A stretch of DNA of 64,000 bases from Heterodontus francisci (Eukaryota), in NCBI RefSeq assembly GCF_036365525.1, contig NC_090404.1, positions 32,106,236 through 32,170,235 of the forward strand, in the 5' to 3' direction. Position numbers and translations under genes: made by a program. The notes beneath the pieces are model-generated. The model was given only the letters and a program-made list of their open reading frames with translations, did no database searches and had not been told where the DNA came from. Every line of letters begins with the position of its first letter. Position 1 is the first letter of the stretch. This document shows, piece after piece, positions 417 to 55,001 of this stretch.

Positions 417-486
417 CTGGAACCCCGATAACAGCAAGGATTGGATAGTAAATGGCAAATACCAGACCTTTTGGTGCAACGTGCAT
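417..486 (-). CDS. Exon 1 of GPR139-like class A GPCR gene A (exon 2 lies off the left edge of the window)
   Basis: 70-nt exon MHVAPKGLVFAIYYPILAVIGVP+G followed by a GT donor (CCAG|gtaaaa); same length and phase as exon 1 of the two complete paralogs. Confidence 0.85.
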
Positions 487-536
487 TTCGATCAGAGACT
501 CTGAGCACGATCCACAATATAGTCAAATATTGTCAC

Positions 537-640
537 ATTTATACCTGAAATCAGGCTCCAGGGATATAATTAGGTGGTTTGATCTATTGCATCAATCACA
601 CTAATTGAAACAAACAGATTCGTGCAGCTGCTGCCAGGAT
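537..640 (-). promoter_or_regulatory. Conserved GPCR promoter of gene A: TAATTA + TCCCTGGAG + TATA box
   Basis: Minus strand reads cctaattatatccctggagcctgatttcaggTATAAAT about 50 nt upstream of the ATG; conserved in all three paralogs. Confidence 0.7.
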
Positions 641-989
641 CATGTTTATGATTTGATGGAATAGAATTTTTATAAAGAGCACTGCTACGTCTCTAAAATG
701 AAATACCCAGAGACTATAATATGGTCCCTGCTATATTTCTTAATAAAGGATATCAAAAAGCTTACTACCATGTTGAGATGGTGAAAGTGCACCCTGTACA
801 CGAAGAATCTCCTGTTTGAACCCCTTCATGCTGAGTTAAGTGCCCTCACCACAAGATATAACTGATCGGGGATATTTTGGTGCTGAAGGAAAATGCATTC
901 AAGTTCTCACTCCCAATCATAATTCAGCTTCAGTCCATGCGATCACTGGTCACAGACATCTGACTCAAAATCCCTCTGAGAATGTAGAC

Positions 990-1450
990 CGACTTCAGTG
1001 CAGCTGACTGTGCATTCCTTGTGCTGATGTCGAGGACAGCACGAATACTTTCAGTGTGCATAGGTGCAGTTGATCATGTTTCCATTTTGTGCAGAAATGA
1101 ACATGTTCAGCACGATTGTCTTCAGTACGGTTACCTTCAGTGGGTGCAGGCCCAGTTGAGCAGAGCTACACTTAGCTTGGACTGATCCAGGTCGGGGAGT
1201 TATATGCATTGTGTAGAGGTCCAGTTCAGCACGGTTACAGTCAGTGTAGTCTGATACAGTTCAGCATGATTACTTTCGGTGCACAGGACAAGTTCTGCAC
1301 GGTGACATTCAGATCAACTGGTACACTTACCATGGATACATTTATTGTCCTGTTCAGCATGGTTACATTCAAAGTGCACAGCTTCTGTTCAGCATGGTTA
1401 CTCTCAGTGTGGACTGGAACAGTTCAATGCAGTAACTATCAATGTTGATA
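990..1450. repeat. Degenerate ~30-35 bp satellite upstream of gene A (resumes at 3314-3400 after a CR1 insertion)
   Basis: Recurring gttcagca(c/t)ggttac..tcagtgt motif; same array at 9420-10020, 17585-18480 and 55490-56370. Confidence 0.75.
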
Positions 1451-1454
1451 ACTC

Positions 1455-3313
1455 TCAATGCCTTTGGATAAAGGAGAATCCTAAAAGATTCTGTAAGTAT
1501 ATTACGAGTAACAGGGTAGCTAGGAAGAGAGTAGGTCTCCTGAAGGATCAGTGTGGCAATCTATGCATGGAGCCACGGGTAATGGGCGAGGTCTTAAATG
1601 AATACTTCTCATCTGTAATTACCGTGGAGAAGGTCATGGAAGCTAGTGAGTTCAAGGGATGGAACAGCGATACCCTGGAGCATATCAACATTACAAAGCA
1701 GGATGTGTTGGAGGTTTTAAAGTGCATTAAGATGGATAAATCCCCAGGGCCTGACCAGGTGTATCCCAGGTTGCTATGGGAAGCAAGGCAGGAGATTGTT
1801 GGGGCCCTGGCAGAGATTTTTATATCATCGTTAGCCACGGGTGAGGTACTGGAAGACTGGAGGATAGCTAATGTTGTGCCTTTATTTAAGAAGGGCAGCA
1901 GGGATAAGCCAGGGAACTATAGGCCGGTGAGCCTTACATCAGTGGTGGAAATGTTACTGGAAGAGATTCTGAGAGACAGGATTTATATGCATTTGGAAAG
2001 GCATGGTCTGATTAGGGGTAGACAGCATGGCTCTGTGTATGGGAAATCATGTCTCACGAATTTGAGTTTTTCGAGGAGGTTACCAAGAGGATTGACGATT
2101 GCAGGGCGATGGACGTTGTCTACATGGACTTTAGCAAGGCCTTTGACAAGGTCCTGCATGGGTAGGCTGGTCTTGAAGTTTCGAACACATGGGATCCAGG
2201 ATGAGCTAGCCAATTGGTTGTAAAATTGGCTTGGTGATAGGAGGCAGAGGGTGGTAGTGGAGGGTTGCTTTTCAGATTGGAGGTCTGTGACCAGTGGTGT
2301 GCCGCAGGGATCTGTGCTGGGCCCTCTGTTGTTGTCATATATATTAATGACTTGGATGTGAATGTAGGGGGCATGATTAGTAAGTTTTCAGATGACACCA
2401 AAATTGGTGGTATAGTGGACAGTAAAGAAGGTTGTCTAAGGTTACAACATGATATAGATCAACTGGGAAAGTGGGCAAGGGATTGGCAAATGGAATTTAA
2501 TGCAGCCAAGTGCGAAGTGATGCATTTTGGGAAGTTAAACCAAGGCAGGACATATACAGTGAATGGCAGGGCCCTGGGGATTGTTCTTGAGCAGCGAGAC
2601 CTTGGGGTGCAAGTACATAGTTCCCTGAATGTGGCAACACAGGTAGACAGGGTGGTGAAGAAGGCGTATGGCACACTTGCCTTCATGGGCCGAGGCACTG
2701 AGTACAAGAGTTGGGGCGTCATGCTACAGTTGTACATAACATTGGTTAGACCGCATTTGGAGTACTGTGAGCAGTTCTGGTCGCCGCACTATAGGAAAGA
2801 TGTGATTAGGCTAGAAAGGGTGCAGAAAAGATTCACAAGGATGTTGCCTGGATTGGAGGGCTTGAGTTATAAAGAGAGATTGGATAGGCTGGGTCTGTTT
2901 TCCCTGGAGCGACAGAGGCTGAGAGTGGTCATGATAGAGGTATATAAAATTATGAGAGGCATAGGTAGGGTAGAAAGCCAGAGTCTGTTTCCCATGGTAG
3001 CGGTGACTAAAACTAGAGGGCATAGATTTAAGGTGAGAGGGAGGAGGTTTAAAGTGGATCAAAGGGGTAAATTTTTCACACAAAGAATAGTGGGTATCTG
3101 GAATGAGCTGCCAGAGGAGGTGGTGGAGGCACGAACAGTAGCAACATTTAAGAGGCATCTGGACAGGTAATTGAATGAGTAAGTCATAGAGGGTTATGGA
3201 ATTAATGTAGGCTGGTGTGATTAGTATAGCTAGGCATTATGGTCGGCATGGACGCGGTGGGCCAAAGGGCCTGTTTCTATGCTGTACGACTCTATGAATC
3301 TATGACTCTATGA
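1455..3313 (+). mobile_element. CR1 LINE, 5'-truncated, RT region with frameshifts
   Basis: ORFs 1345-2223 and 2265-3170 contain KSPGPD, PGNYRPVSLTS, SKFSDDTK and LERVQKRFTRM; 3' tail of actctatg-like repeats. Confidence 0.95.
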
Positions 3314-3419
3314 TGGGTCCAGCCCGTTTAGATTCCACGTGCACAGGTCCCGTTGTGCAGGCTAACTTTCAATGTGGAAATGCTCAGATCAACAAGATTT
3401 CATTTATTAGCCTGGGGTG

Positions 3420-3815
3420 CATGCTGCGCATGTTCGTTAGGGTACTAACTTATGAGAAGAGGTTTGTATTCGTGACTACAGAAGATTAAGGGGAATTTAT
3501 GATTTGTTCCCATAGACAGACAGATAGTTATTTCCTCAGTTGGGGTGTCCAGGTGTCTTAAAGTTAAAGAAAGCCGTTCATGGATAAAGTGGGGAAGCAT
3601 TTACTCACACAGATGGTATGGTAAAGCTGGAACTCGCTGCATCAAAATGCTGTTGAGACTAGATCAATTAGAAGTGTAAAAACTCACATTCGGCAAGAGT
3701 ATTAAGGAGTATAAACCGAGGTGATGAGTGGAGTTAAAACACACATCCACCATGATTTAATTGAATAGCGGAGCAGGCTTGAGGGGCATAATCGGGGCCT
3801 ACACTGTTCCTATGT
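3420..3815 (+). mobile_element. Degraded CR1 3' fragment
   Basis: tatgagaagagg...agaagattaagggg...ggaactcgctgc...gagcaggcttgagggg resembles a CR1 3' end. Confidence 0.55.
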
Positions 3816-4929: not shown

Positions 4930-5050
4930 TATCGGCTTGAAGACCCAATCAGGACTTTAGTCTACAGTTCCAGTTGACACGTAGAAACATTGAGGGAGTG
5001 CTGCAGTGCGGAAAATGTGGTTTTTACAAGAGATGGTCAACAGATTAGGT
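4930..5050 (+). mobile_element. DeuSINE-like core remnant
   Basis: ttgacac...tgagggagtgctgcagtg resembles the Deu-domain consensus. Confidence 0.4.
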
Positions 5051-5900: not shown

Positions 5901-7094
5901 CTTTATTTGATTCTGTTCGTCTTTATATATTGTAGGAGATTTGAAATGGAGTAGAAGTTTTCCACAGCTTCAGGACTTGAATCAATTGACTGTTGTGGAC
6001 ATTACTCACCACACGACCACAAGTGAGAACGTCACGTGTGAGCTGGTGGGAGTAATTATTCGGATGGAGCCTGACAGCTACTGGTGTGATGAACACGATG
6101 ATGCATCAATTCGTATGCTGGTGTTGTTTCAATTCATTGTATTGGTAATACTAATTTATTGTGGACGGCATGTCTGGAAACAAGGACTATAGGAAATCGT
6201 GAACTCAATAACAACATACCCAAATAACCATAAGGAATCGTATTGTATGACTTCACTGAATATTCATGTTGAATTGTGTAACATGAGCTCCTTAAAGAAT
6301 AAATCTGATTCTGTGGTTGTTACAACTGATGTACCAAGAGAAGGCACCCTGCCTAAATGGATTGTTTTCTGCGTGTCCATCGTGTTTCATCGATGGAAGG
6401 ATGCCAACCAATAAACACAACTGATAGCTGGAAAGATCAGTTTTTCCTGGTGGCAGCTCACACTAATTGACATCAATAACTAACCCTGCTCAGTCACTGT
6501 CATGCGCAAAAATGTAAATAATTGATCCCACAACAGCTGATATTCAGATAAACGAAGCTCTCAGGGGGACGAGAATCGGCAATGGGCCAACGTATAGCTG
6601 AAGAGTGTTCTCTGGAAGGAAGGTGATCTGTTGATAACATATATATTTATTAAACTCAATAATATATAGAATATATATGTAGATATCACTGTAATCTAAT
6701 TAACTGGCTTGTTGCTAGTGCATCTACAAAATCTCTGAATTATAAATTGCAAATGCAATTTACTTTATTTAGCATAATTGAATCTTCCAGCAGAGAAGGA
6801 AATAATTTGCCCTGTCGTGCATGTGTCGGCTCTTTAACTGAGCTATTCAATTCAGCCCCAAAACCCAACTTTTTTCCCCGATAACCCTGAAAATTAGTTC
6901 TCTTCCAGCGCACATCCCGTTGCTTTTGAAAGTTCCCATGGAATCTAATTCCACCAACCTTTTTGGTGCTGTGTGCCAGAACATACCAAATTGCCTACTT
7001 TTGCATCAATCCATGTTTGTCTGTTTATCGATATAACCAATATAATATACAATTTAGGAGCGAATCTGCAACAGAAATCGAACCTGGTGTGAAC

Positions 7095-7769: not shown

Positions 7770-8420
7770 TTACAGAGGTCGGAAATCTGACCTTCTGAAC
7801 GTCCATGTACACAACATTATTGCACTGCCCTGACCAACCATCCACGTAGCCACGTCAAAAAACTCAATCCAGTTAGTCAAACATGATTTGCCCTTAATAC
7901 GTCTGCCTGTGCTGGTTCTACTTTATCAGTGTATGCCTGTCCAGATGGTAATCAGATTTGGCCCCGATTATTGTTTCTAAGTGCTTCCCCAGCACTGATG
8001 TTAGACCGACTAGCCTGTAATTGACAGTCTTGTCATTCTTCCCTTTTCTGCACAAGGATGCGACATTTGTAATCGTTCAGAGCTTTGGCACCACCCCAGT
8101 AACTGAGCGGAATTGAAGATTTGTGCGCAGCAGCTGCACAATTTCTCTCCTTATTTCTCTCAGCTATCTCATATTCATTTCATCTGGACCAGATAAGTCA
8201 ACCACTTTAAGTCCCACTGGAATTTTTATTATGTCCTATTCATCTATTTTAGCTCATCTGGTGTCCCAGTAACCTCCTCATTTGGCCATAGTTTTGAAAA
8301 GTCCTCTTCTGTGGCAGTCACTGATGTAAAAGTGTTCATTTAGTGCCTCAGGCATGCCTTAAACCTTGACCATATATCTTCATTTTCGTCCCCAACTGGC
8401 CACACCACTCTTCTGACAAC
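7770..8420 (-). mobile_element. Degraded CR1 RT fragment
   Basis: Reverse strand gives an NY.LVGLTSVLGKHLE-like CR1 motif (7960-8030) and neighbouring CR1-like sequence. Confidence 0.6.
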
Positions 8421-8539
8421 TCCTTATTTTTGTTTTGTAAATTTTCGAACTGCGTCTTTGCACATATGTTTAATTTTGCAACTCTCTTCTGTGCTTTTTA
8501 TATTAAGCTTGATTCCCCCTAGTATTATCAATTTGAAAT

Positions 8540-10080
8540 CCGTTATCGGCTCCAGTACTGGGGAAAGAGGGAGCTGTGTCATTGGGACGAGGCCCACTTA
8601 AACTGAGCTGGGAACAATGTCCAGGCGAATCCAATAACTAAGATTATAGATGGATAAGATAACAAATTGGGGAGGCTTAAAGTGATAGGAATTTATCAAT
8701 GTAAATTGAAAAGTCAAGGGTACCGAGCAGTGAAGTGATTTGGTTGAAGTTAAGCAGAATGTGTTAGGAAGCGACAGAGAGTTAAATGCTAATATTGCAT
8801 CAGTAAATAAGGTAAAATCAGGGGAAAATGGCAGAATTTTAAAATTAAAAACCCTTTATCTGAATGCCCAGAGGATTTCTAGCAAGATAGATGCATTAAT
8901 GGCATAAATAGAGATAAATGGCTTGCTCTAATAGAATTTTTGAGAAGTGGTTTCATGGATACCAAGGTTGGGAAAAAATATTTCAGTGAACTTGACATTT
9001 CGCAAAGACAGACAAAATTAAAAATAAGGTAGGGCAGCCTTCATAATAACGGATCACATAAGGACTGTAGTAAGGAAGGATCTTGTCCAGAAAGAGTAGG
9101 AAATAAAATCAGCATGGGTAGAGAAGTGAAATAACAAGGAGAAGCAAGACATGTGAGAGAAGTTTATAGGCCTCCTAGTAGCAGCTGTACTGTTGGATAT
9201 TGTGTAATCAAAGGCAATCAGGGTGGACAACAAATGTGTGACTTGCCAGCGATGCACATCAAGACATAAAAGGATCTTGTAACAAAGGTTGATATTCAAC
9301 GGCCGAAATTTAACTGCACCAGCCATATGAATACCATGGCTACAAGAGCAGGCCAGAGCCTGGGATGTCTGTGGCACATAACACACCTCATTCCAATAAG
9401 ACTGTCCACAGCGCATGCAACCTCACTTAACTGGACAACTGCACATTAAATGTAAGCATGCTGAACTGGGTCTGTCCACACTGAATATTGTCATGCAGAC
9501 CTGGACCAGTCCACAGTAAGTATCACCATGCTAATTGTGCCTGCCTCTACCGAACCCAACTGTACTGAACTTGACCAGTCAGCACTTAATGCAAGCATGT
9601 TGCTTTGGACGTTTGAACAATGAGAGGTAGCATGCACAACTGGACCTATTCATCTGGAATATAACTAGGCTGAACCCATCAACATCGAAAATAACCGTGC
9701 TGAACTGAACCAGTGCACCCAGAACATGACTGTGCTGAACTAAACCTGGGCACACAGATTCTCACCATGCTGAACTTGACTCTCCGCACTACATGTACCC
9801 ACGCCAACCTTGAGCAGTCCACGCAAAATGCACATGTGCTCAACTGGACATGTCTCCACTGAATATAACCGTACTGAACTTGGCCATCAATACTAATCAC
9901 AACAGAGCTGAATTGGACCTTTCCACACAAAACATAAACGTGCACAACTCACCCTTATGCACACTGAAAGTACCGTGCTGACATAGACCAGTCCACATTG
10001 AATACAGTCAGCTGCGTTGAAGTGGATGCACCCCCTTAGAGGGATTTGTAGTCAGGTGAATATGACCCAGGAGCACACGG
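8540..10080 (+). repeat. Orphan copy of the GPCR upstream module (CR1 5' remnants + LINE fragment + satellite)
   Basis: Colinear with 16720-18535 and, inverted, with 55440-57230, including the same chimeric junctions. Confidence 0.8.
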
Positions 10081-10089
10081 TTCAGCATA

Positions 10090-11900: not shown

Positions 11901-12516
11901 GCACCAAATGTATGTGCTCTCCAACCTGATCAGAAACAACGTGTGCCAGTCGTGGATCACAACTCCCGCACACAAAACAAGGGACACAAAATATTTTAGC
12001 CCATACTTCTAAGGTCACCTGTGACCGACCAAGAAGTCTACACTTACTACATTTCAAGGCTCGTAACAATCAACTCTTATATTCCAAAATGTTGTTCTAT
12101 GAATGGAGTTTGCGTAATGTGCATTGTAAAAATGAATCATAACTACTTTAATGTGATGCTCGTTATATTGATTCCTGGATAGATCACCCAGTGAAACATT
12201 GCATCAGCAGAATCGTTTTAAATTTACTCCCTTCAAGCGCTGCCCATCGCGTCTGCTTTTACTGTTTTGGCGAAGTGGAAACAACAAGTCGATCTCGACA
12301 TTATCCAGTCCGTCGAGAATCTGGAAAGCAGTAAGCATATTACTTCTCAGCGTTTCCTTTTCCAGTGACCACATATTCGATTTACATTATCGCTCCTCAC
12401 AATTCAATCCATCCATCCATTCGCCCATTCTGGTTGCTCTTTCTTGTGCTCGTTGGACAGCTGTAATACTCTGTGGTGTCCAGAACTGTAGACAATAATC
12501 GAAGTGCTGTCTCATC

Positions 12517-16625: not shown

Positions 16626-17584
16626 GGGACAGAATTTACGAGCGATAAAGGAATGACTGATCAGTGCTATCAGTTGAATTCCTGGCTCCAACAGTGGTAT
16701 GGGAGGCAAGAATTTCTTTTCATGGGTCACTGGCTCTCGTACTGGAGAAGGAGGGAAATGTTCCTTTGGATCGATGTCCATTTAGACCAGAATGGGACCA
16801 ATGTCCAGGAGAATCCAATAACTAAGGTTATATTCGGTGATTTAAAATAAAAGCAAAGTTGGGAGGCTTAAAATGATGGGGAATTTATAAATGTAAAGAG
16901 AATAAAGTGAAGGGAACAGAGCAGTTTTGATTAAAGTTTAACAGAAGGTGACAGGAAGCGACAGAGTTAATGCTAACTTTGTATCAGTAAGTAAGGTAAA
17001 ATCAGGGCAAAATGGCAGAAATTTAAAATTAAAACCTTTATCTTAATGCCTGGAGGATTTGTAACAAGATAGACAAGCTAATGGCACAGATAAGATAAAT
17101 GAGTTGTTCTAATAGCATTATTGAGAGGTGTTTGCATGGTGACCAAGGTTGGGAAATAAATATTCCGGGGTATCTGAGATTTCATAAAGACATACATAAT
17201 GAAAAACCAGGTAGGGTAGCCCTGATAATAAGGGGTTACATAAGGACAGTAGAATTGACGGATCTTGGCTCGAAAGAGTAGGACATAAAATCAGTATGAG
17301 TAGAGATTCGAAATAAAAAGGAGAAGCTAAGGCATTTGAGAGCAATTTATAGGCCTCCTAATAACAGCTAGGAAATGGTATAAATCAGAGCAATTAGGAT
17401 GGACAGCAAATGCCTGCCTTGCCAGAAATTCGCATCAAGAAATAAAAGGATCTTGCAGCAAAGGTCGACATTCAACTGTCGAAAATTAACTGCACCAGTA
17501 ATATATAGACTGTGACGTTAAGAGCAGGTCAGAGGTTCGGAACTCTGCACAGAGCAACCCACCTCCTGACACCCAAAATCCTGT

Positions 17585-18480
17585 CCACACCGAATGCAAC
17601 CTCACTTAGCTGGATCTCTGTACACTAAATGCAATCATGCTGAACTGGATCAGTCCACACTGAATGCAGCTGTGCGAAGTCTGAACATTTCTACAATAAA
17701 TATGACTGATAAACTGGACCTCTCCACGCTGAAACTAACTGTGCAGTACCAGACCTCAGCAGGCTAACAGTAATCGTGCTCAACTACCCATCTGTACACT
17801 CGATATAAACATGCTGAGTTGGCCAAAATCACATTGGCAGTAACGGCGATGAATTGGGCCTGTCCACATTCAATGGAATCTGGCGAACTGAAGCTGGCCT
17901 CTGAATGTAACAATACAGAACTGGATCTGTCTACTCTGAATGTGAGTGTGCTGAACTGGAACTTCAGACACTTAATATTACCGTGCATACCTGGCCAATC
18001 AACTCTAAATATCACCGAACTAATTGCACTTGCTTCTACCGAATGCAACTGTACTGCAATTGACCAGTCAACATTGAATGCAACCATGTTGGATCGTACT
18101 TTTCAACACTGAGAATTCGCGTGCACAGCTGGATCTATGTAATGAATGTAAACGGGCTGAACCGGTTCACACTGAGAGTAACTGTGCTGAACTAAACCTC
18201 TGCACAGTTATTGTGGGAGTACTGAACCTGACCTCTCCATATTGCATATAAACGCGCGTCGACCTCGACCAGTCCACACTAAATGTAAATATAATCAACT
18301 GGACTTGTCTTCACTGAATATAACCATACCAAACTTGACAATCAATAGTGAAGGCAACCGTGCTGAACTGGACGTTTCCATGCAAAACTGAAATGTGCAA
18401 GACTGCACTTATACACATTAATAGTGCAGTGCTAACCTAGACCAGTCCACGCTGAATACTATCAACTGCACTGAAGTGGA
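17585..18480. repeat. Degenerate ~30-35 bp satellite upstream of gene B
   Basis: Recurring gtgctgaactgga..tccacactgaatg. Confidence 0.75.
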
Positions 18481-18795
18481 TATACTATCTAAGAGGGATT
18501 TGGGGTTAAATGGATGTGACTCGGGATCACACGGTGTGGAGCTGAATAGCGATCAGGAGATTGACATTTACTATATTTTCCTTCAGGACCAGAATATACC
18601 TTGTGCTGTGAGCAGCTAGCTCAGCCCTAAAGGGTTTAAACCCGAGGATTCACTTTCACCACTGCAACCACCGATTACTCATTTCATTATCATAACTGTA
18701 ACAAACATCATTTTGTAATATCTGGGTATTTCACTTTAGAACCGTGTTCAATCCTTTCAAAAACATTCCATTCTATCAAAACAAAAACACGAGTC

Positions 18796-18895
18796 TGGCA
18801 GCAGATGCACTAATCTGTTTGTTTCAATTCGTGTAATTAACGTAAAAGATCAAAATATCTAATTATCTCCCTGGAGCCTGACATCAGGTATAAAT
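18796..18895 (+). promoter_or_regulatory. Conserved GPCR promoter of gene B: TAATTA + TCCCTGGAG + TATAAAT
   Basis: atctaattatctccctggagcctgacatcaggTATAAAT (TATA at 18889-18895), about 50 nt before the ATG. Confidence 0.7.
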
Positions 18896-18945: not shown

Positions 18946-19015
18946 ATGCACGGATCAGTAAAAGGTCTGGTGTTTGCCATTTACTATCCCATCCTTGCAG
19001 CTATCGGGATTCCAG
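18946..19015 (+). CDS. GPR139-like class A GPCR gene B, exon 1
   Basis: MHGSVKGLVFAIYYPILAAIGIP+G, donor CCAG|gtaac; phase-1 intron joins in frame to 22467. Confidence 0.9.
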
Positions 19016-19537
19016 GTAACGTACTGCCCTTAAATATTAGTTACGTAAATCATTGATTAACTTTCTCACTGACCTTATTTATGACTAACGCTTCTCCATG
19101 TTAATGCTATCCTTTCTCTCCTTTAATTGGATACTTTCGTTACTTTAACGGGAAGATTCCTTCCCTTCAATTTTATATAATCTCACCTAGTTTACAGTAT
19201 TATTTGTTTCCACTTTAGCGTTATAATTTCTCCATTTTAATATAACTTCTTGGAAATTTACTGATATAACGTTTTGTCATTAATGCTTTCATTTCTTTAA
19301 ATTACCAGCGTATTTTTCTTCTGTTTTCCTGCATCACCTTCTACTTTGGCGGCACAATTTATCTTCTTTAGCTGTATAATTTGCCCATTAACCAGTGTCA
19401 TTTCTCCTGTTTGGTAGTGTAATTTAGAGCTTGTAACTGTATATCTCCCCGTACTTGTGCCATTTCACAGTGTAAATTTAGTTCTATTGTGTTGCTGACA
19501 CTTAATGTGGGTGAATTATCACACTGTTATCACGTTG

Positions 19538-20443
19538 TGTTATGACCATGGCGGGAGCAACGCACTGTCAATTCAGTCTCATCACTCCACAGGTCGCAGC
19601 ATATTATTAAGTTTTCACACGCAATCGGAAAACAGTCAAAATAAACACTCTCGTTACCCCAGAATGAAACAGACCAAACCAGGTAACTTCAGACAACAAC
19701 AAATAAACTATTTATTAAAAAAACTAAATCTTAAACAATATTCAGATAAACCGCTGTCTAAAGACCTTATAACTTCTTATCTTAACCTAACTCCCACATT
19801 CGAACGCATACACTTAAAAAAACTAACAGCTGACTCTTTTTAAAAGTGGAGTTTTAAAAAATTATCTGTCTCTTAAGAATAAATAAAATAAGTAAGCTTT
19901 TGTAGGTTTTGTTTCTGATCGATGAGGTCTTCTAATGTGGAAATAGTCAAAAGCCACTCGAAGTTTCCATCCGGATTTGATGAAAATAGTCCTTCAGTAG
20001 ATAAGCATTAAACTCTTCGGCTGCAGGAAGCATTAAACCGTTCTTTGAACGATGAGCACAGCAATGTAAATGTTTTTTTTTTGAAAGGAAAGGCTTTTCT
20101 TCTTTAGTCAGGGAATTAACTTGGCTTGTCACTCTTTTTGTAGAGATTTTGCTCAGAGGCAATAGACTGCTTTCTTCTCTTCAGTACGCTTGGTGGGAAA
20201 GCCTCTGAGAACTATCTGATTTCAGCCAGTTTCTGCCACTTGCATACACAGGCAAGTGGAAGAATTACCATGTGACCTCTCTCTCTCTCCCTCCTTCTGT
20301 TGCCCAGGGTAACAAAATTGCAGCTGTGGCACACGATTTCTCCAGAATTTTCTCCCCCTTAAAGGTGCACTGTTTCAAAAGAGTTTTAAAGGCACGCAAA
20401 CTGTTTTTAATACGAGGAGAAAAATAATTACCGATCCGTGACA
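19538..20443. mobile_element. Probable solo LTR (~0.9 kb) in the intron of gene B
   Basis: Begins TGTTATGA and ends CCGTGACA (TG...CA); splits one 67-bp unit with a possible decayed 5-bp TSD (cgttg/cagag); absent from the paralogous intron of gene C. Confidence 0.6.
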
Positions 20444-20775
20444 CAGAGTAAATATAATTCTATGGTATTATTGACACGGTTACTGTGGGTGAATTATCAC
20501 ACTGTTATTATGCTGTAAATGTAGTTTTTTGTGTAATTGATAGTGTTACTTTGGGTGAATTGCCACACTGCCAACATGCTGTAAATGAGGTTCCATTGTG
20601 TTGCTGACACGGTTGTTCTGGGTGAATTATCACACTTACCACGCTGTAAATGTAGTTCTATTGTGTTATTGATACTGTTACTTAGGGTCAATTATCATAT
20701 TGTTATCACGATGAAAATGTAGCTCTATTGCATTATTGAAAATTACTGTGGGTGAGCTATTACACTGCCACAATT

Positions 20776-21102
20776 GGGGTGGCACAGTGGCGCAACTGTT
20801 AGCACTGCAGTTGCACAGCTCTAGAAACCCAGGTTCCGTTCTGGGTGTGCAGGGTTTGCAAGTTCTCCCTGTGAACACGTGGGTTTTCGCCAGGTGCTCC
20901 AGTTTTCTCGCACAGCCAAAGACTTGCATGTTGGGAGGTAAATTGGCCTTTATATATTGCTCCTAGTGTAGGTAGTTGGTTGGAAAATGGTGGGGATGTG
21001 GTCGGGAACATGGGATTAATGTAGGATTAGTACAAATGGGTGGTCGTTGGTCGGCACAGACTCAGTGGGCCGAAGGGCCTGTTTCAGTGCTGTATCTCTC
21101 TA
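20776..21102 (+). mobile_element. V-SINE (HE1-like) tRNA-derived SINE
   Basis: tRNA-like head, V-domain gtttgcaagttctccctgtg..gtgggttt..caggtgctcc, CR1-like tail ggccgaagggcctgtttcagtgctgtatctct. Confidence 0.9.
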
Positions 21103-22466
21103 TAACAAGTGTTTTTGACCCTGTTACTGTGGGTGAATGATCACACTGTTATCACGGTGCAAATGTAGTTCTACTATATTATTGACACTGTTACTGTGGG
21201 TGAATTACCACACGGTAATCACAGTGTAATTGTAGTTCTATTGTGTTTTGACGCTGTTACTCAGGATGATTTATTACTGTCACCACAGTGTACAAGTTCT
21301 ACGGTATTCATGGTATTGACAGCGACTGCTACGTTTTATAAGTGATTTACTGATTAGAATTATTCAACAATTAAATAATTCTTGACTGAATTTAATGAGT
21401 GAAATTATTGAAGGAAAATTATTAGTCTGCCACTTGTTCACAGAAATATAAGCTATGTGGCAAGTAGCCGTTTTATGAATGAATCTGTACTTACCCTAAA
21501 ATCACAGCGCACAGTGATTTTGATGGCAGACTTTAACTCCTATTGCTTCAGCCTGGCTCTCCTCTCCACATGAGCTGCTGCCAACTGCTCCACACTGTGC
21601 ACAATGGATCGAATGTGTCTTCTGCTCCAAGCCCCTGGCAATGTCCCGGACATTTCCTATCTTCAATTGTTTCTCCATATTTTGTTTAACTGGTGGTGTC
21701 TCTCGCATCTGAGTCAAAAAGCTTTAATTTCAGTACCAACTACTGGGCTAAGCTGACCATCTATGCTGACAGCTCAGCGCACTGAGAAATGGTTGCATTG
21801 CAGGAGGGATGAGACCTCATCGCCTGCCAGTTCCACTGATGCAGGTCGACACAGAATTTCCCAGGGGACTAACAGGAGAAACTGTTTGAGTTATCATTGT
21901 GTCTTCAACAACAGAGTGATGAAACATTTATTGTCCATTTGGTTCTGTCTGAGAAATGTTTCCAGCAAGCTGACTGTCGAATTTACCAACAATTAATCAT
22001 TTTGCAGCAATTATTTGGGTCCTCAGCAGGACATAATCTATTTTAAATGCAAGTTTTTCCTACCTTCCTGTTCTTTTTTACTTTTATTGTCCGTTATTGG
22101 ATTATTTACTCTCTTCAATATGTTCTAGAATATGTTATTGAAGTTACTTTTCCTATCTGTTTGCTGTTCCTGTTTTGGAGTCAATGGGTTTCCGATCCCT
22201 TCTTGTTCTCTCTTATGCTCGATTGCATTATTTTATATTCCTATGTTATTGTCCTGTCTGATTTTCTAACCCAAATTATTTAAAACCCATAAACATGCGC
22301 CCAGATGTTAAGCGATAATTTTCCACTCAGTATCACGTGTTAGAGAATTTTACTCAGGATTCTGTAAAACTGATTTTTTTGACTCGTACCAGGAATTTTC
22401 CTGTTCTAGCTCTTTCACAAACATACACTCTTTCTCTTCCTCTGACTCTCTCTGTCTCTATTACAG

Positions 22467-23374
22467 CTAACCTGGCAGTGATTGTGATTCTGTGCCGAAG
22501 AAGGTGTGGCCTCTCCAGTTGCATCACTTATTACCTGACGTCCATGGCAGTGACGGATCTCCTAGTCATGATCACTACTGTGATATTAAACCGAATTGTT
22601 GGTATTTATTTCCCTGGCAGTTTCATGTTTATCACACCAGTATGCAGTCTCCGTATTGCCCTAAACTATGCGATCATAGACTGTTCTGTCTGGGTAACGG
22701 TCGCTTTCACATTTGATCGATTTATGGCAATTTGTTGCCAGAAGTTGAAAATAAAATACTGCACTGAGAAAACGGCAGCTCGTGTGATAGGAACAGTCTG
22801 CACACTGAGTTGCTTAATAAATACCTTCCGATATTTTCAGTTTGAACCTGTGTATATAATTAACAATGTATCCTGGTTCTGCAGCATAAAATTAATATTT
22901 TATACTTCACCAGCATGGGCGGCATATGACTGGATTCACCAGATTTTAACCCCTTGTCTCCCATTCATTCTGATTTTACTGTTCAATGCTCTGACTGTCA
23001 GAGACATTCTAGTGGCCAGTAAAGCCCGCAAGAGACTCACGGTCAACAACAATGGAGAGAATCGGAGTGACCCAGAGATGGAGAAGCGGAGAAACTCCAT
23101 GGTTTTACTCTTATGCATCTCAGGAAGCTTTATCCTGCTGTATTTGCTACTTCTTATAAACTTCCTTTATGTCCGAATTGCGAAATTCAATTATTTTTCC
23201 GGTTCTAATTTCGATCAGTCAAATTTTATTCTCGACCAAAGCGGATATATGCTTCAGCTTCTGAGTTCCAGTATCAATCCATTTATTTATGCAGGGACCC
23301 AGAGAAAATTCAGAGAGGAGTTAAAGAATGGAGTGAAATATCCACTGAGTCTGATTGCTAAATTGTTTAAATGA
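22467..23374 (+). CDS. GPR139-like class A GPCR gene B, exon 2 (spliced product 325 aa)
   Basis: Acceptor ttacag|CT; ANL (TM1), MAVTDLL (TM2), FTFDRFMAICC (DRY-like), LPF (TM5), NPFIY (TM7); stop TGA at 23372-23374. Confidence 0.93.
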
Positions 23375-24299
23375 CGAAAATAGTAAAATCCAACATGAAT
23401 TGCACGTGCTGTTCCACCCATTGTTGTTCTTATGCATGTCACACATGATCCCCTCCCAGAAAAATATTCACTCGCTTTCAGGTCCTTATCTATTGCTTGA
23501 ATTTAAGAATGCATTAGCAAAGTCGCATCACTGCACAATTCTTGTTTAGTTTCCAGTTTTCTTCCCCAAGCTGACTCTAGCTCACTTCATTTCAATCAGC
23601 CCTAAGGGCCCATAGGAATCGCTACATTCCTGTAGGAGACAGAGAGTCTGACCTCTGATCTCTTATTTGATATCAAGTTTCACTGTTCAACGAAGGGACA
23701 TCAACATTGTTACTAGGAAAGATTTGGATTTTAAGGGTAGGATAGGCACTAAAATGGATTCGTGTACTGCCCCATGCACTGGTCCACAATCCATAGGCAC
23801 AGCCTCTCAGCCGCACGCTTGTGCTGAAACACATAGAAACAGAGGGAATTCTGGAAAGGAAAAAAAAAGACAAACTACCATCTCATTCACCATCTATTCT
23901 TTCCATGCTGTATCCCGAAATGGCATTCTATGACTGACATCAGTCGTATTCATGTTAGAGACAATATTAACTGCTTCCAAGTAGGACATCTGTTCCATAT
24001 ATCGACCACTTAGTGAAATATTGTTTCAGTAGATTGGCTTTGAATTTACCCCCTTTATCTCTGTGACCTCTGGCTCTACTGTTCTCGAAAACCTTTCGAG
24101 CTCTGAATCATCTAGTCCCTTTAGAATCTGGAAAATAATAACCTTACCAACCTCGAGCTTGCCTTTTCAACTGAAAACATGCTCAATGTACATAATAGTT
24201 TCACAGAATTCAAACTGATCCATCCTTTGAATCATTCTGGTGACTTTCTTTGGTGCCTGTTAAAAAGCTGCAACATCCTTTCATTTCAATTCAGCACCT

Positions 24300-26219: not shown

Positions 26220-27730
26220 GTAGTGCTGACAGCTGGAATAATGATCTATAACCATGAGTTCAAATTATATAATTGCAGCTATGGAATTAAAATTCAGTTA
26301 ATTAAATAAAGCTGGAGAAATAAAACACGAATCTATGGGATTGTCAATAAAAAAAAAGGAAATACATTTGTTTCACTAATGTCCTTAAGGGAAAGATATC
26401 TGACGTCCTTAACCAGTCCCGCCCATGTGTGACTCCAGACAAGCGCAATGCAGTTGACTCTTCAAGAACCTCTGAAATGGCCTAGAAAGACATTCACTTG
26501 CACCATATCTCTCGGAGAAAGCACACTGAGAATAAAACTGGACCGTTCACTGGCTTCGACCTGATCCTTGGATTTGAAGACAATAGGGTCAACCATAAAA
26601 AGCAGAGCTATGGAGAGATGGCAGGGAAGGAATAGCTGAGTTACTGCTGCAGACAGTTTACAGGGAGAAAATGAGCTGATTGACTTCCTTCTGTGCTGTA
26701 ACTATCCCATGATTCTATGGTTCTATTATTCTTTACTGACATCTGGGGACTTGTTGCAAAGTTGGGAAAGCTGTCCCACAGACGACTCATAAATATATTC
26801 AGAAGGACACACCCACAGCGGCATACACTTTTTTAGATTTAGAGATACAGCACTGAAATAGACCCTTCGGCCCACCGAGTCTGTGCTGACCATTAAGCAC
26901 CTATTTATACTAATCCTACAATCCTACCACATCCTCACCTGTTCCTATATTCCCTTACCACCTACCTATACTAGGGGCAATTTATAATGGCCAATTTACC
27001 CATCAACCTGCAAGTCTTTGGCTGTGGGAGGAAACCGGAGCACCCGGAGGAAACGCACGCAGATTCAAGGAGAACTTGCAAACTCCACACAGGCAGTACC
27101 CAGAATTGAACCAGGGTCGCTGGAGCTATGTGGCTGCAGTGCTAACCACTGTGTCGCCCCTTGGGAGAGATTGGCCCTGGGAGTCCTTGACATTGACACT
27201 GGATGCCTGAAGTCTTCCAGCATCTGTCACACTTGGGCAAGGAAAAACCCTTGCTGATTACCATCCTCCCTCACCTGATGAATCAGTACTGGTCCTTGTT
27301 TAACACCATTTGGAACAAACACAGATGGTAACAAGGGTATAAAATGTACTTTGAGAGGGGGACTTTCGATATATGTCATCAAGAGTCGCTCGGTGGTGCT
27401 AATACTGGCTAAGTCCTGAAGGGCAAAGCGGCCAGTCTGGACCTGTGGCAGGTGGCGAGTTAACTAACAAGAGAGAAAAACCTACTTGACGTCATCCTGC
27501 GAAATCCACCTGCCTCTGTCCGTGACAATATTGATAGGAGTGACCATCGCACTGTCCTTATGGAGATAATATACCATCTTCACATGGAGGGTATCCTGCA
27601 TAGTGTTGTGTGGCACTATCACCGTTAGAAATGGCATAGATTCAGGACATATCTAGCAGCTCCAAACTCATCCTCTGTGAGGCTGTAGGCCATCGGCAGC
27701 CGCAGAATCGTATTCCACCACAATTTATAT
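26220..27730 (+). mobile_element. Degraded 5' part of the 3.3-kb jockey/CR1-group LINE (interrupted by a SINE)
   Basis: Homologous to 58290-59600 (cactaatgtcc..., gagtgaccatcgcactgtcc). Confidence 0.7.
26828..27160 (-). mobile_element. V-SINE (HE1-like)
   Basis: Reverse complement of the 20776-21102 family, with tail at 26828. Confidence 0.9.
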
Positions 27731-35577: not shown

Positions 35578-35940
35578 TATTTTTTAGTTTTTTAGTTTTA
35601 GAGATACAGCACTGAAACAGGCCCTTCGGCCCACCGAGTCTGTGCCGACCATCAAGCACCCATTTATACTAATCCTACAATAATCCCATATTCCTACCAC
35701 ATCCCCACCTGTTCCTATATATTTCCCTACCACCTACCTATACTATGGGCAATTTATAATGACCAATTAACCTATCAACTTGCAAGTCTTTGGCATGTGG
35801 GAGGAAACCGGAGCACCCGGAGGAAACCCACGCAGACACAGGGAGAACTTGCAAACTCCGCACAGGCAGTACCCAGAATCAAACCCGGGTCCCTGGAGCT
35901 GTGAGGCTGCGGTGCTAACCACTGCGCCACAGTGCCGCCC
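35578..35940 (-). mobile_element. V-SINE (HE1-like), young
   Basis: Complete tRNA head, V-domain and CR1-like tail ending in (ctaaaaaa)n. Confidence 0.92.
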
Positions 35941-45342: not shown

Positions 45343-48300
45343 TTTTTTTTATCCATTCATGGGATGTGGGCGTCGCTGGCCAGGCCAGCATTTATTGCCC
45401 ATTCCTAATTGCCCTTGAGAAGATGGTGGTGAGCTGCCTTCTTGAACCGCTGCAGACCATGTGGGGTAGGTACACCCACAATGCTGTTCGGGAAGGGAGT
45501 TCCAGGATTTTGACCCAGCGAAAGTGAAGGAACGATGATAACGTTCCAAGTCAGGATGGTGTGTGACTTGGAGGGTAACTTGCAGGTGGTTGTGTTCCCA
45601 TGTATTTGCTGCCCATGTCCTTCTAGTTGGTAGAGGTCGCGGGTTTGGAAAATGCTGTTTAAGGAGCCTCGGGGCGTTGCAGCAATACATCTTGTAGATG
45701 GTACACACTGCTGCCACAGTGCGTCGGTGGTGGAGGGAGTGAATGTTTGTAGATGGGGTGCCAATCAAGCGGGCTGCTCTGGCCTGGATGGTGTCGAACT
45801 TCATGAGTCTTGTTGGAGCTGCACCCATCCAGGCAAGTGGACAGTATTCCAACACACTCCTGACTTGTGCCTTCTAGATGGTGTATGGCATTGGGCAGTC
45901 AGGAGGTGAGTTACTCGCCACAGGATTCCTAGCCTCTGACCTGCTCTTGTAGCTACTGTATTTATATGGCTACTCCCGTTCAGCTCCTGGTCAATGGTAG
46001 CCCCTAGGATGTTGATAGTGGGGGATTCAGCGATGGTAATGCCATTGAAATTCAAGGAGAGATGGTTAGATTCTCTCTTGTTGGAGATGGCCATTACCTG
46101 CCAATTGTGTGGCCCGAATGTTACTTGCCACTTCTCAGCCCAAGCCTGGATATTGTCCAAGTCTTGTTGCATTTCTACACGGACCACTTCTGTATCTGAG
46201 GAGTCAAGAATGGTGCTGAAGATTGTGCAATAATCAGCGAACATCCCCACTTCTGACCTTATGATTGAAGGAAGGTTATTGATGAAGCAGCTGAAAATGG
46301 CAGAGCCTAGGACACTACCATGAGGTACTGCTGCGGTGATGTCCTGGAACTCAGATAATTAACCTCCAACAACCACAACCATCTTCCTTTGTGTTAGGCA
46401 TGACTCCAACCAGTGGAGAGTTTTCCCCCTGATTCCCATTGACCTCAGTTTTGCTAGGGCTCCTTGATGCCATACTCGGTCAAATGCTGCCTTGATGTCA
46501 AGGGCAGTCACTCTCACCTCACCTCTTGAGTTCAGCTCTTTTGTCCATGTTTCAAACAAGGCTGCAATGAGGTCAGGAGCTGAGTGGTCCTGGCGGAACC
46601 CAAAATGAGCGCCACTGAGCATGTTAATGCTAAGCAAGTGCTGCTTAATGGCACCGTTGACGACACCTTCCATCACTTTACTGATGATTGAGAGTGGGCT
46701 GATGGGGAGGTAATTGACTGGGTTTGACTTGCTTTGCTTTTTGTGTGCAGGGCACACCTGGGCAATTTTCCACGTTGCTCGATAGATGTCAGTGTTGTAG
46801 CTGTTATGGAACAGCTTGGCTAGGGGCGAGGCCCGTTCTAGAGCATAGGTCTTCAGTACTATTGCCGGAATATTGTCAGGGCCCAGGCCTTTGCAGTATC
46901 CAGTGCCTTCAGTCGTTTCTCTGATATCATGTGGCTTGAATAAAATTGGCTGAAGTCTGGCATCTATGATGCTGGGGACTTCAGGAGGAGGCCGAGATAG
47001 ATCATCAACTCGGCACTTCTGGCTGAAGATTGTTGCAAATGCTTCAGCCTTATCTTTCGCACTCATGTGCTGGACTCCCCCATCAATGCGGATGGGAATA
47101 TTTAGGAGCCACCTCCTCCAGTACGTTGTTTAATTGTCCACCACCGTTCACGACTGGATGTGGCAGGACTGCAGAGCTTAGATCTGATCCGTTGGTCATG
47201 GGATCACTTAGCTCTGTCTATTGCGTGCTGTTTACGCACCTTGGCACGCAGATAGCCCTGTGTTGTAGCTTCACCAGGTTGACATCTCATTTTGAGGTAT
47301 GCCGGTGCTGCTCCTGGAATGCCACCCTGCACTCTTCATTGAACCAGGGTTGGTCTTCTGGCTTGATACTAATGGCAGAGTGGGGGATATGCTGGGCCAT
47401 GAGGTTACAGATTGTGTTTGAATACAATTCTGCTGCTGCTGATGGCCCACAGTGCCTCATGTATGCCCAGTTTTACATTGCTAGATCTGTTCGAAATCTA
47501 TCCCATTTAGCACGGTGGTAGTGCCACACAACACGAAGGACTGTATCCTCAATATGAAGGCGGGACTTCGTCTCCACAAGGACTGTGTAGTGGTCACTCC
47601 TACCATTACTGTCATGGACAGATGCATCTGCGGCAGGTAGATTGGTGAGGACGAGGTCAAGTATGTTTTCCCCTCTTGTTGGTTCCCTCACCACCTGCTG
47701 CCTACCCAGTCTAGCAGATATGTCCTTTAGGACTCAGCCAGCTCGGTCAGTAGTGGTGTTACCAAGCCACTCTTGGTGATGGACATTGAAGTCCCTCATG
47801 CAGAATACATTCTGTGCCCTTGCCAACCTCAGTGCTTCTTCCAAGTGCTGTTCAACGTGGAGGAGAACTGACTCATCAGCCGAGGAAGGGTGGTAGGTGG
47901 TAATCAGCAGGAGGTTTCCTTGTCCATATTTGACCTGATGCCATGTGCCCTCATGGGGTCCAGAGTCATTGTTGAGGACTCCCAGGGCAACTCCCTCCGT
48001 ACTGTATACCACTGTGCCACCACCTCTGCTGGGTCTGTCCCACCAGTGGGACAGAACATCCGCGGGGTTGGTGACGGCTGAGTTTGGGACATTGTCTGTC
48101 AGGTATGATTCCGTGAGTATGACTATGTCAGGCTGTTGCTTTACTAGTCTGTGGGACAGCTCTCCCAACTTTAGTACATGCGCCCTGATGTTAGTAAGGA
48201 GGACTTTGCAGGGTTGAAAGGGCTGGGTTTGCCGTTGTTGTTTCCGCTGCCTAGGTCGATGCAGGGTGGTCCGTCCGGTTTCATTACTTTTTATTGACTT

Positions 48301-52730: not shown

Positions 52731-53279
52731 CTGTATTAGAGACAGAGGGAGACAAAATGAAAGAGGGACGGTGTATGTGTGTGAGTGAACGAAAACAGGA
52801 AGATTGCTCTTGGAACTCACAACAAGATCAACCTTTTACAAAATTTTGTGTGAAATTCACAGCTTTGACACCAGATCCTGAAAGAAAGAATATTGTTTAG
52901 CCTCCAGGCACTTGTTTCTGTGTTTAAAATAATCTGACTTAAAAATAAGACAGGTTAATAACATCGGAATGTAAAATAATACAATAAAACAGAATGGACG
53001 ACAAGAAAGCATTGTAAACCCATGGAAACCAATATGGAAACATCAAACAGACAATAAAAATAGCATCAATAACATATTTTAGACGCTATTTAAGAGGATA
53101 AACAATAGAATAACTGACAATTAAAGTAGAAACTAACATAAAATTAGGGTAAACTTGTATTTGAAACGGATTATATGTTGCTGAGGATCGAAAAGACCCT
53201 CATCCAACGAATTACTGTAAAAATGATTCATTGTTGCAAAATTCGACACAGAGAGTAGTGAACGGACAGTTAGTGTTTT

Positions 53280-53520
53280 CTGACTTTGCAGAGGGGATGT
53301 TGTTGAAGATGCAGTGATAACTTTAAATGCTTCTTCCATTAATTGCCCGGGATCTTTGGTATTGAACAGTATCAGCGGAAGTGGCAGATTTTGAGGTCTC
53401 ATTTGAGGAAATGTCCTACCTACAATGCAGCACTTCCTCAGTACTGTGCCGTCCTATGCGCATAGATAATCAGCTTAGCCCTGTAGTGGTTATTGAAATT
53501 AAAACATTTTCACACAGATG
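53280..53520 (-). mobile_element. DeuSINE-like remnant in the GPCR intron (paralog at ~21720-21930)
   Basis: Minus strand gtactgaggaagtgctgcattgt..gagacc resembles the Deu domain. Confidence 0.5.
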
Positions 53521-53934
53521 CAAGACATGCCAAAAAGTATACAAAATATGCAAAAAAGATTGAAGTTGAGAACAGTCCGGGACGTTATCAGGGGCTTGGA
53601 GCAGAAGGGACATTCAGAGTCAGTAGTGGTCACTGCAGAATAGTCAGCAGCAGCTAATGTGGAAGAGGAGAGCCGGGCTGAAGCAGTGCGAGTTGGAGAC
53701 TGAAAGTAGAAACACTGTGCTCTGTGTGTTTATGATAATTGCAGATTCAGTCATAAAACGGCCACTTGCTACATTGTTTTATATTGCTGTTAATACCTTG
53801 ATTGCTAGTAAATTCGTCAGGAATTACTTTATTGTTGAATCATTTCAATCAGCAAACCATTTGTGAAAATCAGATAGCCGCTCTCAATTTATTTGTACAG
53901 TAGACCTCTGTGTACACTTCGGTGACATTGATAA

Positions 53935-54440
53935 TTTATGCACAGTAACAGTCTCAATAGCACAATAGAACTCCATTTATAACGTGCTAAGAGTTGGATA
54001 ATTCATCCAGAGTAACGGTATCAATAACACTATAGATCTACATGCACGCCATGATAACAATGCGTGATAATATAACCACAATAAGTAGTTCAAAAAAGGA
54101 ATATAACTAATTTACACCGTAACAACAGTCTGATAATCTACCCACAGTAACACAGTCAATATAAATAAAACTGCATGTACACCATGATAAATGCGATAAT
54201 CTGCCTAGAATGGCAATAGAACTACATTTGCATCATGAAAACAGTGTGATAAGTTACCCACAGTAAGATGGTCATTAACACAATATGACTACATGTGCAC
54301 CATTACAACAGTGCGATGGTTCACCCACAGTAACAATGTCAAGAACAGAATAGAACTACATTTACACCATGATAACAGTGTGATAATTCTCCCACAGTAA
54401 CAATGTCAATAACACAGTATAACTGCATTTTTACCGTGAA
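53935..54440. repeat. 67-bp intronic minisatellite of gene C
   Basis: cccacagtaacaatgtc at 54324 and 54391 (period 67); reverse complement of the gene B array. Confidence 0.85.
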
Positions 54441-54931
54441 ACAGCACATGCAAAGGGACAAACTTATACAGTTGGAAGCGCTAAATTACATTTACAAACA
54501 GGAGAAATTGCACCAGTTAATAGGAAAATGATTCCACTGAAGAGGATAAATAGTGCTACCGAAGTAGAAGGTGTTGCTACAAAGCTGCAGAAATTACACT
54601 GTAATGTAAAGCAATGATATCAATAATGGAGAGAAATGGCACTTCTAAAAGGGAGAAATTAGAACATTAATGATGACAATTTATATCAGTAAATGAAATA
54701 CATTATATCAATAAAGTGGAGAAATAATACGGTTAAAGTGAAAAATGATACTGTGAAAGGTGAGAAATTAGAAAAATTGGAAGGAAGAAATTTTCCCATT
54801 AAAGTGAAGAAATTATCTTACTCAAGGGGAGAAAAGTTAGCCAAAACATGGAGACGCGATATTGGTAAATGAGAGCAGTGCCACAGCTAATCAATGATTT
54901 CCATAACTAATATCTGAGTAAACTCATTTAC

Positions 54932-55001
54932 CTGGAACCCCAATAGCTGCAAGGATGGGATAGTAAATGCCAAACACCAGTCCTTTGGCGGTTGCATGCA
55001 T
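54932..55001 (-). CDS. GPR139-like class A GPCR gene C, exon 1
   Basis: MHATAKGLVFGIYYPILAAIGVP+G, donor CCAG|gtaaat; 70 nt, phase 1, in frame with exon 2. Confidence 0.9.

Follow-up and report, generated by a model that had tools for sequence, protein, structure and literature searches.

What does a cluster of GPR139-like receptor genes do in a cartilaginous fish? We addressed this question in a stretch of Heterodontus francisci (horn shark) DNA of 64,000 nucleotides from contig NC_090404.1, hereafter called the window, in which five related receptor units are set among fragments of long interspersed nuclear elements (LINEs). The original prediction, made from the sequence of this stretch, was that the units form a birth-and-death cluster of GPR139-like G protein-coupled receptors (GPCRs) that may sense amino acids or peptides. 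Our analysis suggests that the cluster belongs to a radiation in cartilaginous fishes that sprang from a single old orphan lineage of class A receptors related to GPR139, and we put at slightly better than even the chance that this radiation is a chemoreceptor repertoire of olfactory sensory neurons. The units found in the window are as follows.

18946..19015, plus strand: gene A exon 1, 70 nt, with a GT donor.
19016..22466, plus strand: gene A phase-1 intron, 3451 nt, within transmembrane helix 1 (TM1).
22467..23374, plus strand: gene A exon 2, completing a 325-residue rhodopsin-family GPCR.
55001-54932, minus strand: gene B exon 1, 70 nt.
52731..54931, minus strand: gene B phase-1 intron, 2201 nt.
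52730-51799, minus strand: gene B exon 2, completing a 333-residue rhodopsin-family GPCR.
486-417, minus strand: gene C exon 1, 70 nt from ATG to GT donor; its exon 2 lies to the left of the window.
5248 to about 6080 (3' end approximate), plus strand: decayed exon 2 with in-frame stops and frameshifts, phase-1 acceptor kept.
7864..10081, plus strand: orphan flank of the upstream type, with a LINE remnant and a 35-bp array; it stops about 410 nt before the expected ATG.
12080..12466, plus strand: copy of gene A downstream DNA, 64% identical to 23911-24273 and the sole match to it in the window.

The two intact paralogs that had been predicted, genes A and B, were confirmed: the gene A exon 2 product was 100% identical to an NCBI H. 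francisci protein, the gene B protein was identical to XP_067870146 in the NCBI comparison, and the two had 252 of 325 residues in common. The third first exon, that of gene C, was also recovered and matched the N terminus of XP_067870144. Matches between paralogs were far above chance (tblastn E value of about 1e-151). The predicted pseudogene could be aligned with exon 2 of gene A over nearly the whole exon (68% nucleotide identity, 28 alignment gaps), and its phase-1 acceptor was at the same position as in the intact genes. The orphan upstream module was likewise present, with neither a promoter nor either exon; together with the copy of downstream DNA at 12080-12466, it probably brackets a deleted gene. 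The claim that all units share the same exon 1 held for genes A, B and C and failed for the pseudogene, which keeps the acceptor only, and for the orphan, which has neither exon. Profile searches of the window returned first exons and proximal promoters for genes A, B and C only, and none for the pseudogene or the orphan. Intact, decayed and probably deleted units thus lie side by side, as expected from the predicted gene birth and death. The position of the intron is not peculiar to the cluster, because in a coelacanth gene model (P0271) an intron at that position is read through.

The size of the family was examined by a protein search, which gave 1987 clusters at E≤1e-10 from 3897 candidates; the family figures were drawn from the best 120 of these matches, among which 88 were from H. 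francisci and 31 from other sharks. The number of horn-shark paralogs is therefore a lower bound, since it counts only proteins among the best 120 of 1987 matches. All 88 horn-shark proteins were distinct at 97% identity, 86 at 95% and 78 at 90%, and the median pair was 76% identical. By our own count, 64 of the 88 paralogs were on one 59.5-Mb contig and the remainder on four others; a search with a salamander query (see below) added three horn-shark proteins and two further contigs. A HMMER scan of 50% representatives found 109 at E≤1e-30. Among 26 proteins looked up from the 150 matches listed, all 12 that were assigned to a species and scored above 170 bits came from cartilaginous fishes. 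Members outside the sharks were found in three batoids (Hypanus, Leucoraja and Mobula) and in the chimaera Callorhinchus. The original prediction of a lineage-specific expansion was thus upheld on a large scale, and the genome-wide copy number, at least 88 distinct horn-shark paralogs among the matches listed, is well past a handful. According to the gene counts cited from PMC10869828, the four known olfactory families amount to 20 to 62 complete genes in total in 10 cartilaginous fishes.

Next, the class of the receptors was examined. The only Pfam model matched above its cut-off was 7tm_1; otherwise just a sub-threshold Srx match was found. The predicted structure was a confident bundle of seven transmembrane helices, with a predicted local distance difference test score (pLDDT) of 91.9, in which TM1 starts at residue 5; the very short N terminus that had been noted is therefore present in the model as well. 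The class A hallmarks were conserved in the 88 paralogs, including D2.50 (87/88), the DR of the DRY-type motif (88/88), NPFIY (84/88), C3.25 (86/88) and a cysteine in the second extracellular loop (ECL2) (88/88). As judged from sequence, the family can be assigned to the class A (rhodopsin-like) GPCRs, with seven transmembrane helices, D2.50, a DRY-type motif, NPxxY and a predicted C3.25-ECL2 disulfide. We rejected membership of the olfactory receptor (OR), V1R, T2R and V2R families, since no match to their Pfam models was found and, as a further point against the first three, the coding region is split by an intron (70-nt exon 1). Membership of the TAAR family was also rejected, because position 3.32 is mostly Asn, Ile or Ser, not Asp, and because the profile ranks GPR139 and peptide receptors first.

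Within class A, a single sequence matched human GPR139 with an E value of 6e-5, not above muscarinic receptors. When a profile of 42 sequences was compared with solved structures, GPR139 came first with 75.8 bits and the runner-up had 62.1. GPR139 was also ranked 1 of 500 in a fold search, at about 22% identity, with an E value of 8e-10 versus 2e-9 for other peptide receptors; since the fold search barely tells GPR139 from these, it adds little weight. The family was therefore kept, as predicted, among the class A receptors related to GPR139, GPR139 being the top solved structure by both profile and fold. We rejected orthology to GPR139. The family profile gave 252, 217 and 201 bits for orphan proteins of a salamander, the coelacanth and a teleost, respectively, as opposed to 75.8 bits for human GPR139, and the pocket residues differ (see below). 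Amphioxus proteins scored 84 to 147 bits and invertebrate-like proteins 110 to 134 bits, most of both falling between 110 and 147. Because the bony-vertebrate orphans and most amphioxus proteins outscore human GPR139, "GPR139" is the best human label for the family, not a statement of orthology.

To place the family among these relatives, a tree of 62 rows was examined. The 44 family rows, of which 36 were assigned by name or window origin and 8 by judgement, formed a single clade with support of 98/93, whose sister (98/86) was a gene of amphibians and sturgeon. Further out were a gene shared by coelacanth, teleost and frog, one from anchovy, and the amphioxus proteins, and the root was placed on four invertebrate-like proteins; the tree was built without canonical GPR139/GPR142, ORs and TAARs. 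The homolog searches returned no canonical GPR139 or GPR142, and an amphioxus query gave 9 amphioxus-type proteins only. With the salamander protein as the query, one cluster was found in each of 19 further amphibian species (66 to 74% identity), and a sturgeon protein was found at 46%; this search was word based and recovered just 4 shark members, so that divergent bony-fish copies could escape it. The closest relative found is thus a conserved amphibian/sturgeon orphan that is apparently single copy. This receptor (P0229 and P0307-P0326) has a GPR139-like pocket that is invariant in amphibians and is a good candidate for deorphanization. Rinne et al. (2019, PMC6504862), in the portion of their survey used here, list under GPR139/GPR142 an orphan called GPR210, of which coelacanth, gar and fishes have three subtypes. 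The bony-vertebrate orphans found in this analysis are probably the GPR210 group, the match being one by description.

We next examined seven pocket positions (3.29, 3.32, 3.33, 5.42, 6.48, 6.51 and 7.39) taken from the mutagenesis and model data cited from a GPR139 paper (PMC5430874) and transferred via the profile alignment to GPR139. Among the 88 paralogs, the mean entropy at these positions was 1.80 bits, versus 0.71 at other transmembrane sites (P=2e-5). The reverse was found in 21 amphibian orthologs of similar divergence (median, 81%), where the pocket entropy was 0.00 versus 0.44 elsewhere in the transmembrane region. A wider set of 17 pocket positions gave 1.25 versus 0.70 in the paralogs (P=5e-4) and 0.09 versus 0.46 in the amphibians. 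Tree-based site rates were 2.13 in the pocket versus 0.75 (P=3e-5; P=3e-4 versus outer-half sites alone), and the pocket excess held in 200 of 200 subsamples of 21 paralogs. In all, 69 different seven-residue pocket strings were present in the 88 paralogs and 1 in the 21 amphibians. Position 6.48 was the conserved exception, with Tyr in 81 of 88. Genes A and B differed at 6 of the 7 sites; the residues at 3.33, 5.42, 6.48, 6.51 and 7.39 were Y, H, Y, L and Y in gene A and F, R, Y, F and F in gene B. Over the whole coding region, the ratio of nonsynonymous to synonymous divergence (dN/dS) between them was 0.29 (bootstrap range, 0.19 to 0.43), with a dS of 0.43. This sequence comparison showed intact copies to be under purifying selection, with a conserved signaling scaffold. 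The TM6 proline (6.50), as a rule conserved, was kept in gene B and replaced by Leu or Val in most horn-shark paralogs (residue 251 in gene A); given this change and Tyr6.48, activation may differ from that of typical class A receptors.

Because the pocket diversified from copy to copy, many different ligands across the paralogs would be expected. The Trp/Phe site of GPR139 comprises F3.33, H5.42 (5x43), W6.48, R6.51 and N7.39 (7x38), and the polar pair Arg6.51/Asn7.39 is modeled as holding Trp or Phe, according to the site description in PMC5430874. A basic 6.51 was found in 5 of 88 paralogs and Asn7.39 in none; the two together were absent from all 88 and from 23 deeper representatives. In the amphibian orthologs, by comparison, Phe3.33, Trp6.48, Lys6.51 and Asn7.39 were found, with the basic 6.51 and Asn7.39 together in 21 of 21. 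Trp/Phe sensing was therefore rejected as a candidate function: with the polar pair missing from all 88 shark paralogs, binding of Trp or Phe as in GPR139 is unlikely. The original prediction had gone on from GPR139 to an amino acid ligand, and that step finds no support, either here or in the scores that argue against orthology. For amino acid smell in sharks, V2Rs are already candidates. Acidic residues were common in the paralogs (Asp3.37 in 72/88 and Asp5.39 in 78/88, with an acidic or amide residue at 7.35/7.36), and our guess, for this reason, is that the ligands may be cationic small molecules or peptides.

We then examined the DNA upstream of the three first exons. The promoter features are as follows.

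18766..18894, plus strand: gene A constrained proximal promoter, with an E-box, an invariant 18-mer, a composite site and a TATA box.
18860-18876 and 18889-18894, plus strand: gene A homeodomain and O/E-like composite and TATA box, respectively.
55072..55088, minus strand: gene B homeodomain and O/E-like composite, at -87; TATA box at -57.
556..572, minus strand: gene C homeodomain and O/E-like composite, at -86; TATA box at -57.

We take the E-box to be one, and presumably the invariant 18-mer includes a forkhead-like site. From -180 to -55, 97 of 125 positions were invariant in genes A, B and C, versus 473 of 884 in the flanks (P=2e-7, with sites taken as independent). The composite consists of a homeodomain hexamer, a two-base gap and an O/E-like 10-mer. 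A degenerate pattern of this layout had 3 matches in the 64 kb, one per promoter, where 0.13 would be expected. The register of the shark sites is also that of a mouse Lhx2/Ebf composite probe derived from the Sfaktiria enhancer, and the first six bases of an OMP O/E probe match the sites of genes A and C (PMC5608512, supplement 7). The main text of that paper, as cited here, describes the Ebf half of the mouse composite as degenerate and its spacing as strict (PMC5608512). The shark sites are thus a candidate Lhx2/Ebf-type element.

These data suggest an olfactory function for the family. It is large and clustered, with gene birth and death, and has a variable ligand pocket on a conserved scaffold, as an olfactory repertoire would. 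Pocket diversification and the promoter composite may be regarded as two independent sequence-level signs of chemosensation, one of them pointing to the nose. Whole units (promoter, two exons and flanks) have been duplicated, inverted, turned into pseudogenes and, probably, deleted. In the mechanism that we propose, Lhx2/Ebf-type factors would switch on single copies in scattered microvillous olfactory neurons; and each copy would bind different water-soluble ligands. Signaling would proceed via Go or Gq, phospholipase C and TRPC2, a route assumed because catshark neurons carry Go and TRPC2 and GPR139 is described as Gq coupled in the literature cited here. According to the sections of PMC10116579 used here, Go and TRPC2 are present in all catshark olfactory neurons, which make up a nearly unbroken single layer, and receptor probes labeled 0.45 to 5.9 cells per mm each, the highest being for the presumed co-receptor v2r1. 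Many catshark olfactory neurons would then appear to lack an assigned receptor, although the paper gives, in those sections, no total density. A bolder form of the proposal is that this is a fifth major vertebrate olfactory family and the largest in cartilaginous fishes, the orphan having been recruited to microvillous neurons before the split of sharks and chimaeras, with at least 100 copies per genome expressed one per neuron via promoter-embedded Lhx2/Ebf composites; we hold it tentatively, at somewhat below an even chance.

Several points weigh against an olfactory role. The pocket dN/dS between genes A and B was 1.6, on 7 codons only, and entropy and amino acid rates cannot part positive selection from relaxed constraint; pocket diversification would also be equally expected of immune receptors. 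The composite pattern was drawn up after the sites had been inspected, and since the three promoters are paralogs, it counts as one event, with a chance that we estimate at about 6e-4 for a 300-bp region. Ebf and LIM-homeodomain factors are also active in other neurons and in blood cells. The mouse composite is described as enriched in enhancers relative to OR promoters (PMC5608512). There it serves ORs and hence ciliated neurons, which are apparently absent in catsharks according to PMC10116579, whose authors, in the sections cited, explain the shark nose by V2Rs. Limited probe sensitivity may also account for the low in situ counts. Finally, the top 50 genes of a catshark brain and olfactory library, as given in the part of PMC11979771 used here, include no GPCR; V2Rs are equally excluded by this list.

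We therefore considered other functions. Extra-nasal chemoreceptors, acting in taste buds, solitary chemosensory cells of the skin or gill, or gut endocrine cells in a role like that of bitter receptors, would be equally consistent with the size of the family and the diversity of its pocket. Cartilaginous fishes are credited in the cited part of PMC10869828 with 2 to 5 taste receptor genes and one T2R, and the related GPR142 senses tryptophan for insulin and incretin release, as known from the title of a reference. However, the promoter composite matches an olfactory-neuron element, and nothing in our results points to taste or gut. We consider this explanation unlikely.

Receptors of leukocytes or epithelia for microbial or host peptides, similar to formyl peptide or Mas-related receptors and diversified by host-pathogen conflict, would also account for a clustered family with fast turnover and a variable pocket, as is typical of immune GPCR families. 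MAS1 and its relatives are reported to be absent from cartilaginous fishes in the part of PMC8455134 cited here, and most catshark ORs peak outside the nose, in the spleen among other tissues. However, the closest relatives are GPR139 and neuropeptide-type receptors, not chemoattractant receptors; the promoter composite does not lend itself readily to an immune interpretation; and the N terminus is much shorter than those of chemokine receptors. An immune function is thus improbable in our view. A further alternative is that the members are receptors for endogenous neuropeptides or metabolites, raised in number mainly when segments of this LINE-rich region were duplicated neutrally, the redundant copies then being free to drift in the pocket; we regard it as very improbable. 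In its favor, the genes were copied together with their flanks, LINE remnants and minisatellites (71 to 80% identity), 2 of the 5 window units are defunct, two NCBI accessions with the same protein exist for each of genes B and C, and the invertebrate relatives are peptide-receptor-like. Against it, the scaffold is under purifying selection, the variation is focused on the pocket and not evenly spread, and deeply diverged subfamilies are retained in sharks, rays and a chimaera.

The DNA upstream of the promoters was examined for further conserved elements. The flanking features are as follows.

55002..58289, minus strand: gene B upstream flank including a 35-bp array, 71 to 80% identical to that of gene A.
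17580..18470, plus strand: degenerate 35-bp array upstream of gene A, of a kind duplicated along with every unit.
980..1446, minus strand: gene C upstream degenerate 35-bp array, interrupted by a LINE at about 1450-3300.
55490-56360 (gene B) and 9400-10030 (orphan): further 35-bp arrays, periodicity confirmed.

In each of the four upstream modules, the promoter is directly preceded by a 35-bp tandem array, which reaches about 900 bp at most and shows no excess of conservation. We rejected the idea that the long upstream module is a conserved enhancer, since its flank identity (72 to 80%) is about that expected from synonymous divergence (dS, 0.43) and only the region from -180 to -55 stands out; for the same reason, the array was treated as co-duplicated DNA, although it may have a function. 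A 67-bp minisatellite was present in the introns of genes A (20448-21261) and B (53929-54444). A dispersed repeat of about 330 bp, which we take to resemble a shark short interspersed nuclear element, splits the gene A minisatellite, with further copies at 26829-27151 and 35588-35924. Gene B is flanked by two LINE copies with reverse transcriptase and endonuclease remnants (45347-47924 and 59092-61677), which are 81% identical over 2.6 kb and in opposite orientations. Rfam and tRNA scans gave no hits.

The annotation of the family also deserves attention. The 382-residue NCBI model of gene A (XP_067870145) was rejected because its first 81 residues come from a LINE-containing join, 1582-1656 plus 5938-6171, and the real 70-nt exon is missed; the model joins a LINE piece (1582-1656), an unrelated segment (5938-6171) and exon 2 (22469-23371). 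The usual first residues of the family open only 54 of the 88 horn-shark models, and many of these models are probably misannotated, perhaps for want of transcripts. Genes B and C each have two NCBI accessions with an identical protein (XP_067870146/154 and XP_067870144/153), which could result from segmental duplication in the very recent past or from a duplicated piece of the assembly. Models P0114, P0188, P0198 and P0245 fuse members to zinc-finger, sodium-channel-like, integrin-like and other neighbors; the fusions are probably misjoins, yet they hint at the neighbors of the clusters in other species.

The proteins themselves are already deposited in NCBI, where they carry automatically assigned names such as "probable GPR139," "GPR15-like," "capa receptor-like" and "vasopressin V2 receptor-like." No description of the family was found in open-access papers or bioRxiv full text, subscription papers being outside the search, and no open-access paper on GPR139 in sharks was found by title or abstract. 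As a receptor, GPR210 was found in the open-access literature only in Rinne et al. (2019, PMC6504862). In the parts cited here, a 2025 review of GPR139 (PMC12208981) mentions no cartilaginous fish, and a whale-shark paper (PMC8455134) describes GPCRs as scarce in cartilaginous fishes. Although sharks have large olfactory organs, fewer olfactory receptor genes are attributed to them than to any other vertebrate group (20 to 62; PMC10869828), a scarcity explained as high sensitivity to few odorants. What has expanded into a repertoire here is a class A receptor that is not GPR139 itself and is probably no Trp/Phe sensor. If the family is expressed in the nose, the shark olfactory repertoire more than doubles and the explanation by few odorants changes; if it is a fifth olfactory family, the view that sharks smell with 20 to 62 receptors would be overturned. 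Should the members instead be immune or gut receptors, they would still represent a large vertebrate GPCR radiation, and the single-copy amphibian ortholog would offer a handle on the ancestral ligand.

How does the family compare with known systems? Like human GPR139 and GPR142, the paralogs have an aromatic residue at 3.33 (77/88) and His5.42 (51/88), and the position of the TM1 intron is presumably the same as in GPR139. Unlike GPR139, which is a conserved single-copy gene with Asp at 3.25, the shark family is multicopy, keeps both Cys3.25 and the ECL2 cysteine, and has 24 residues preceding Asn1.50. The GPR210 group of orphans beside GPR139/142 is matched in its description by our proteins from coelacanth, teleost, amphibians and sturgeon; the survey of that group, in the portion cited, includes no sharks, reports no expansion and does not list amphibians (PMC6504862). 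With the OR, TAAR, V1R/ORA and V2R/OlfC families, the shark receptors have in common an arrangement in tandem clusters spread over several chromosomes, gene birth and death, a variable pocket, a short N terminus and, putatively, a promoter motif of homeodomain and O/E type, whereas the intron-split coding region, the different receptor branch and the lack of a Pfam match set them apart. TAARs reportedly arose from amine receptors, and the adenosine receptor A2c is said to have been co-opted into smell. The vomeronasal formyl peptide receptors (FPRs) of rodents are class A receptors that were co-opted into smell. The shark family may have followed the same course as TAARs, A2c and the FPRs, in that a receptor for an endogenous ligand was, as we propose, duplicated and retuned to outside cues. 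Its ancestor differs from theirs, and its expansion is far larger than that of A2c or the FPRs and apparently confined to cartilaginous fishes.

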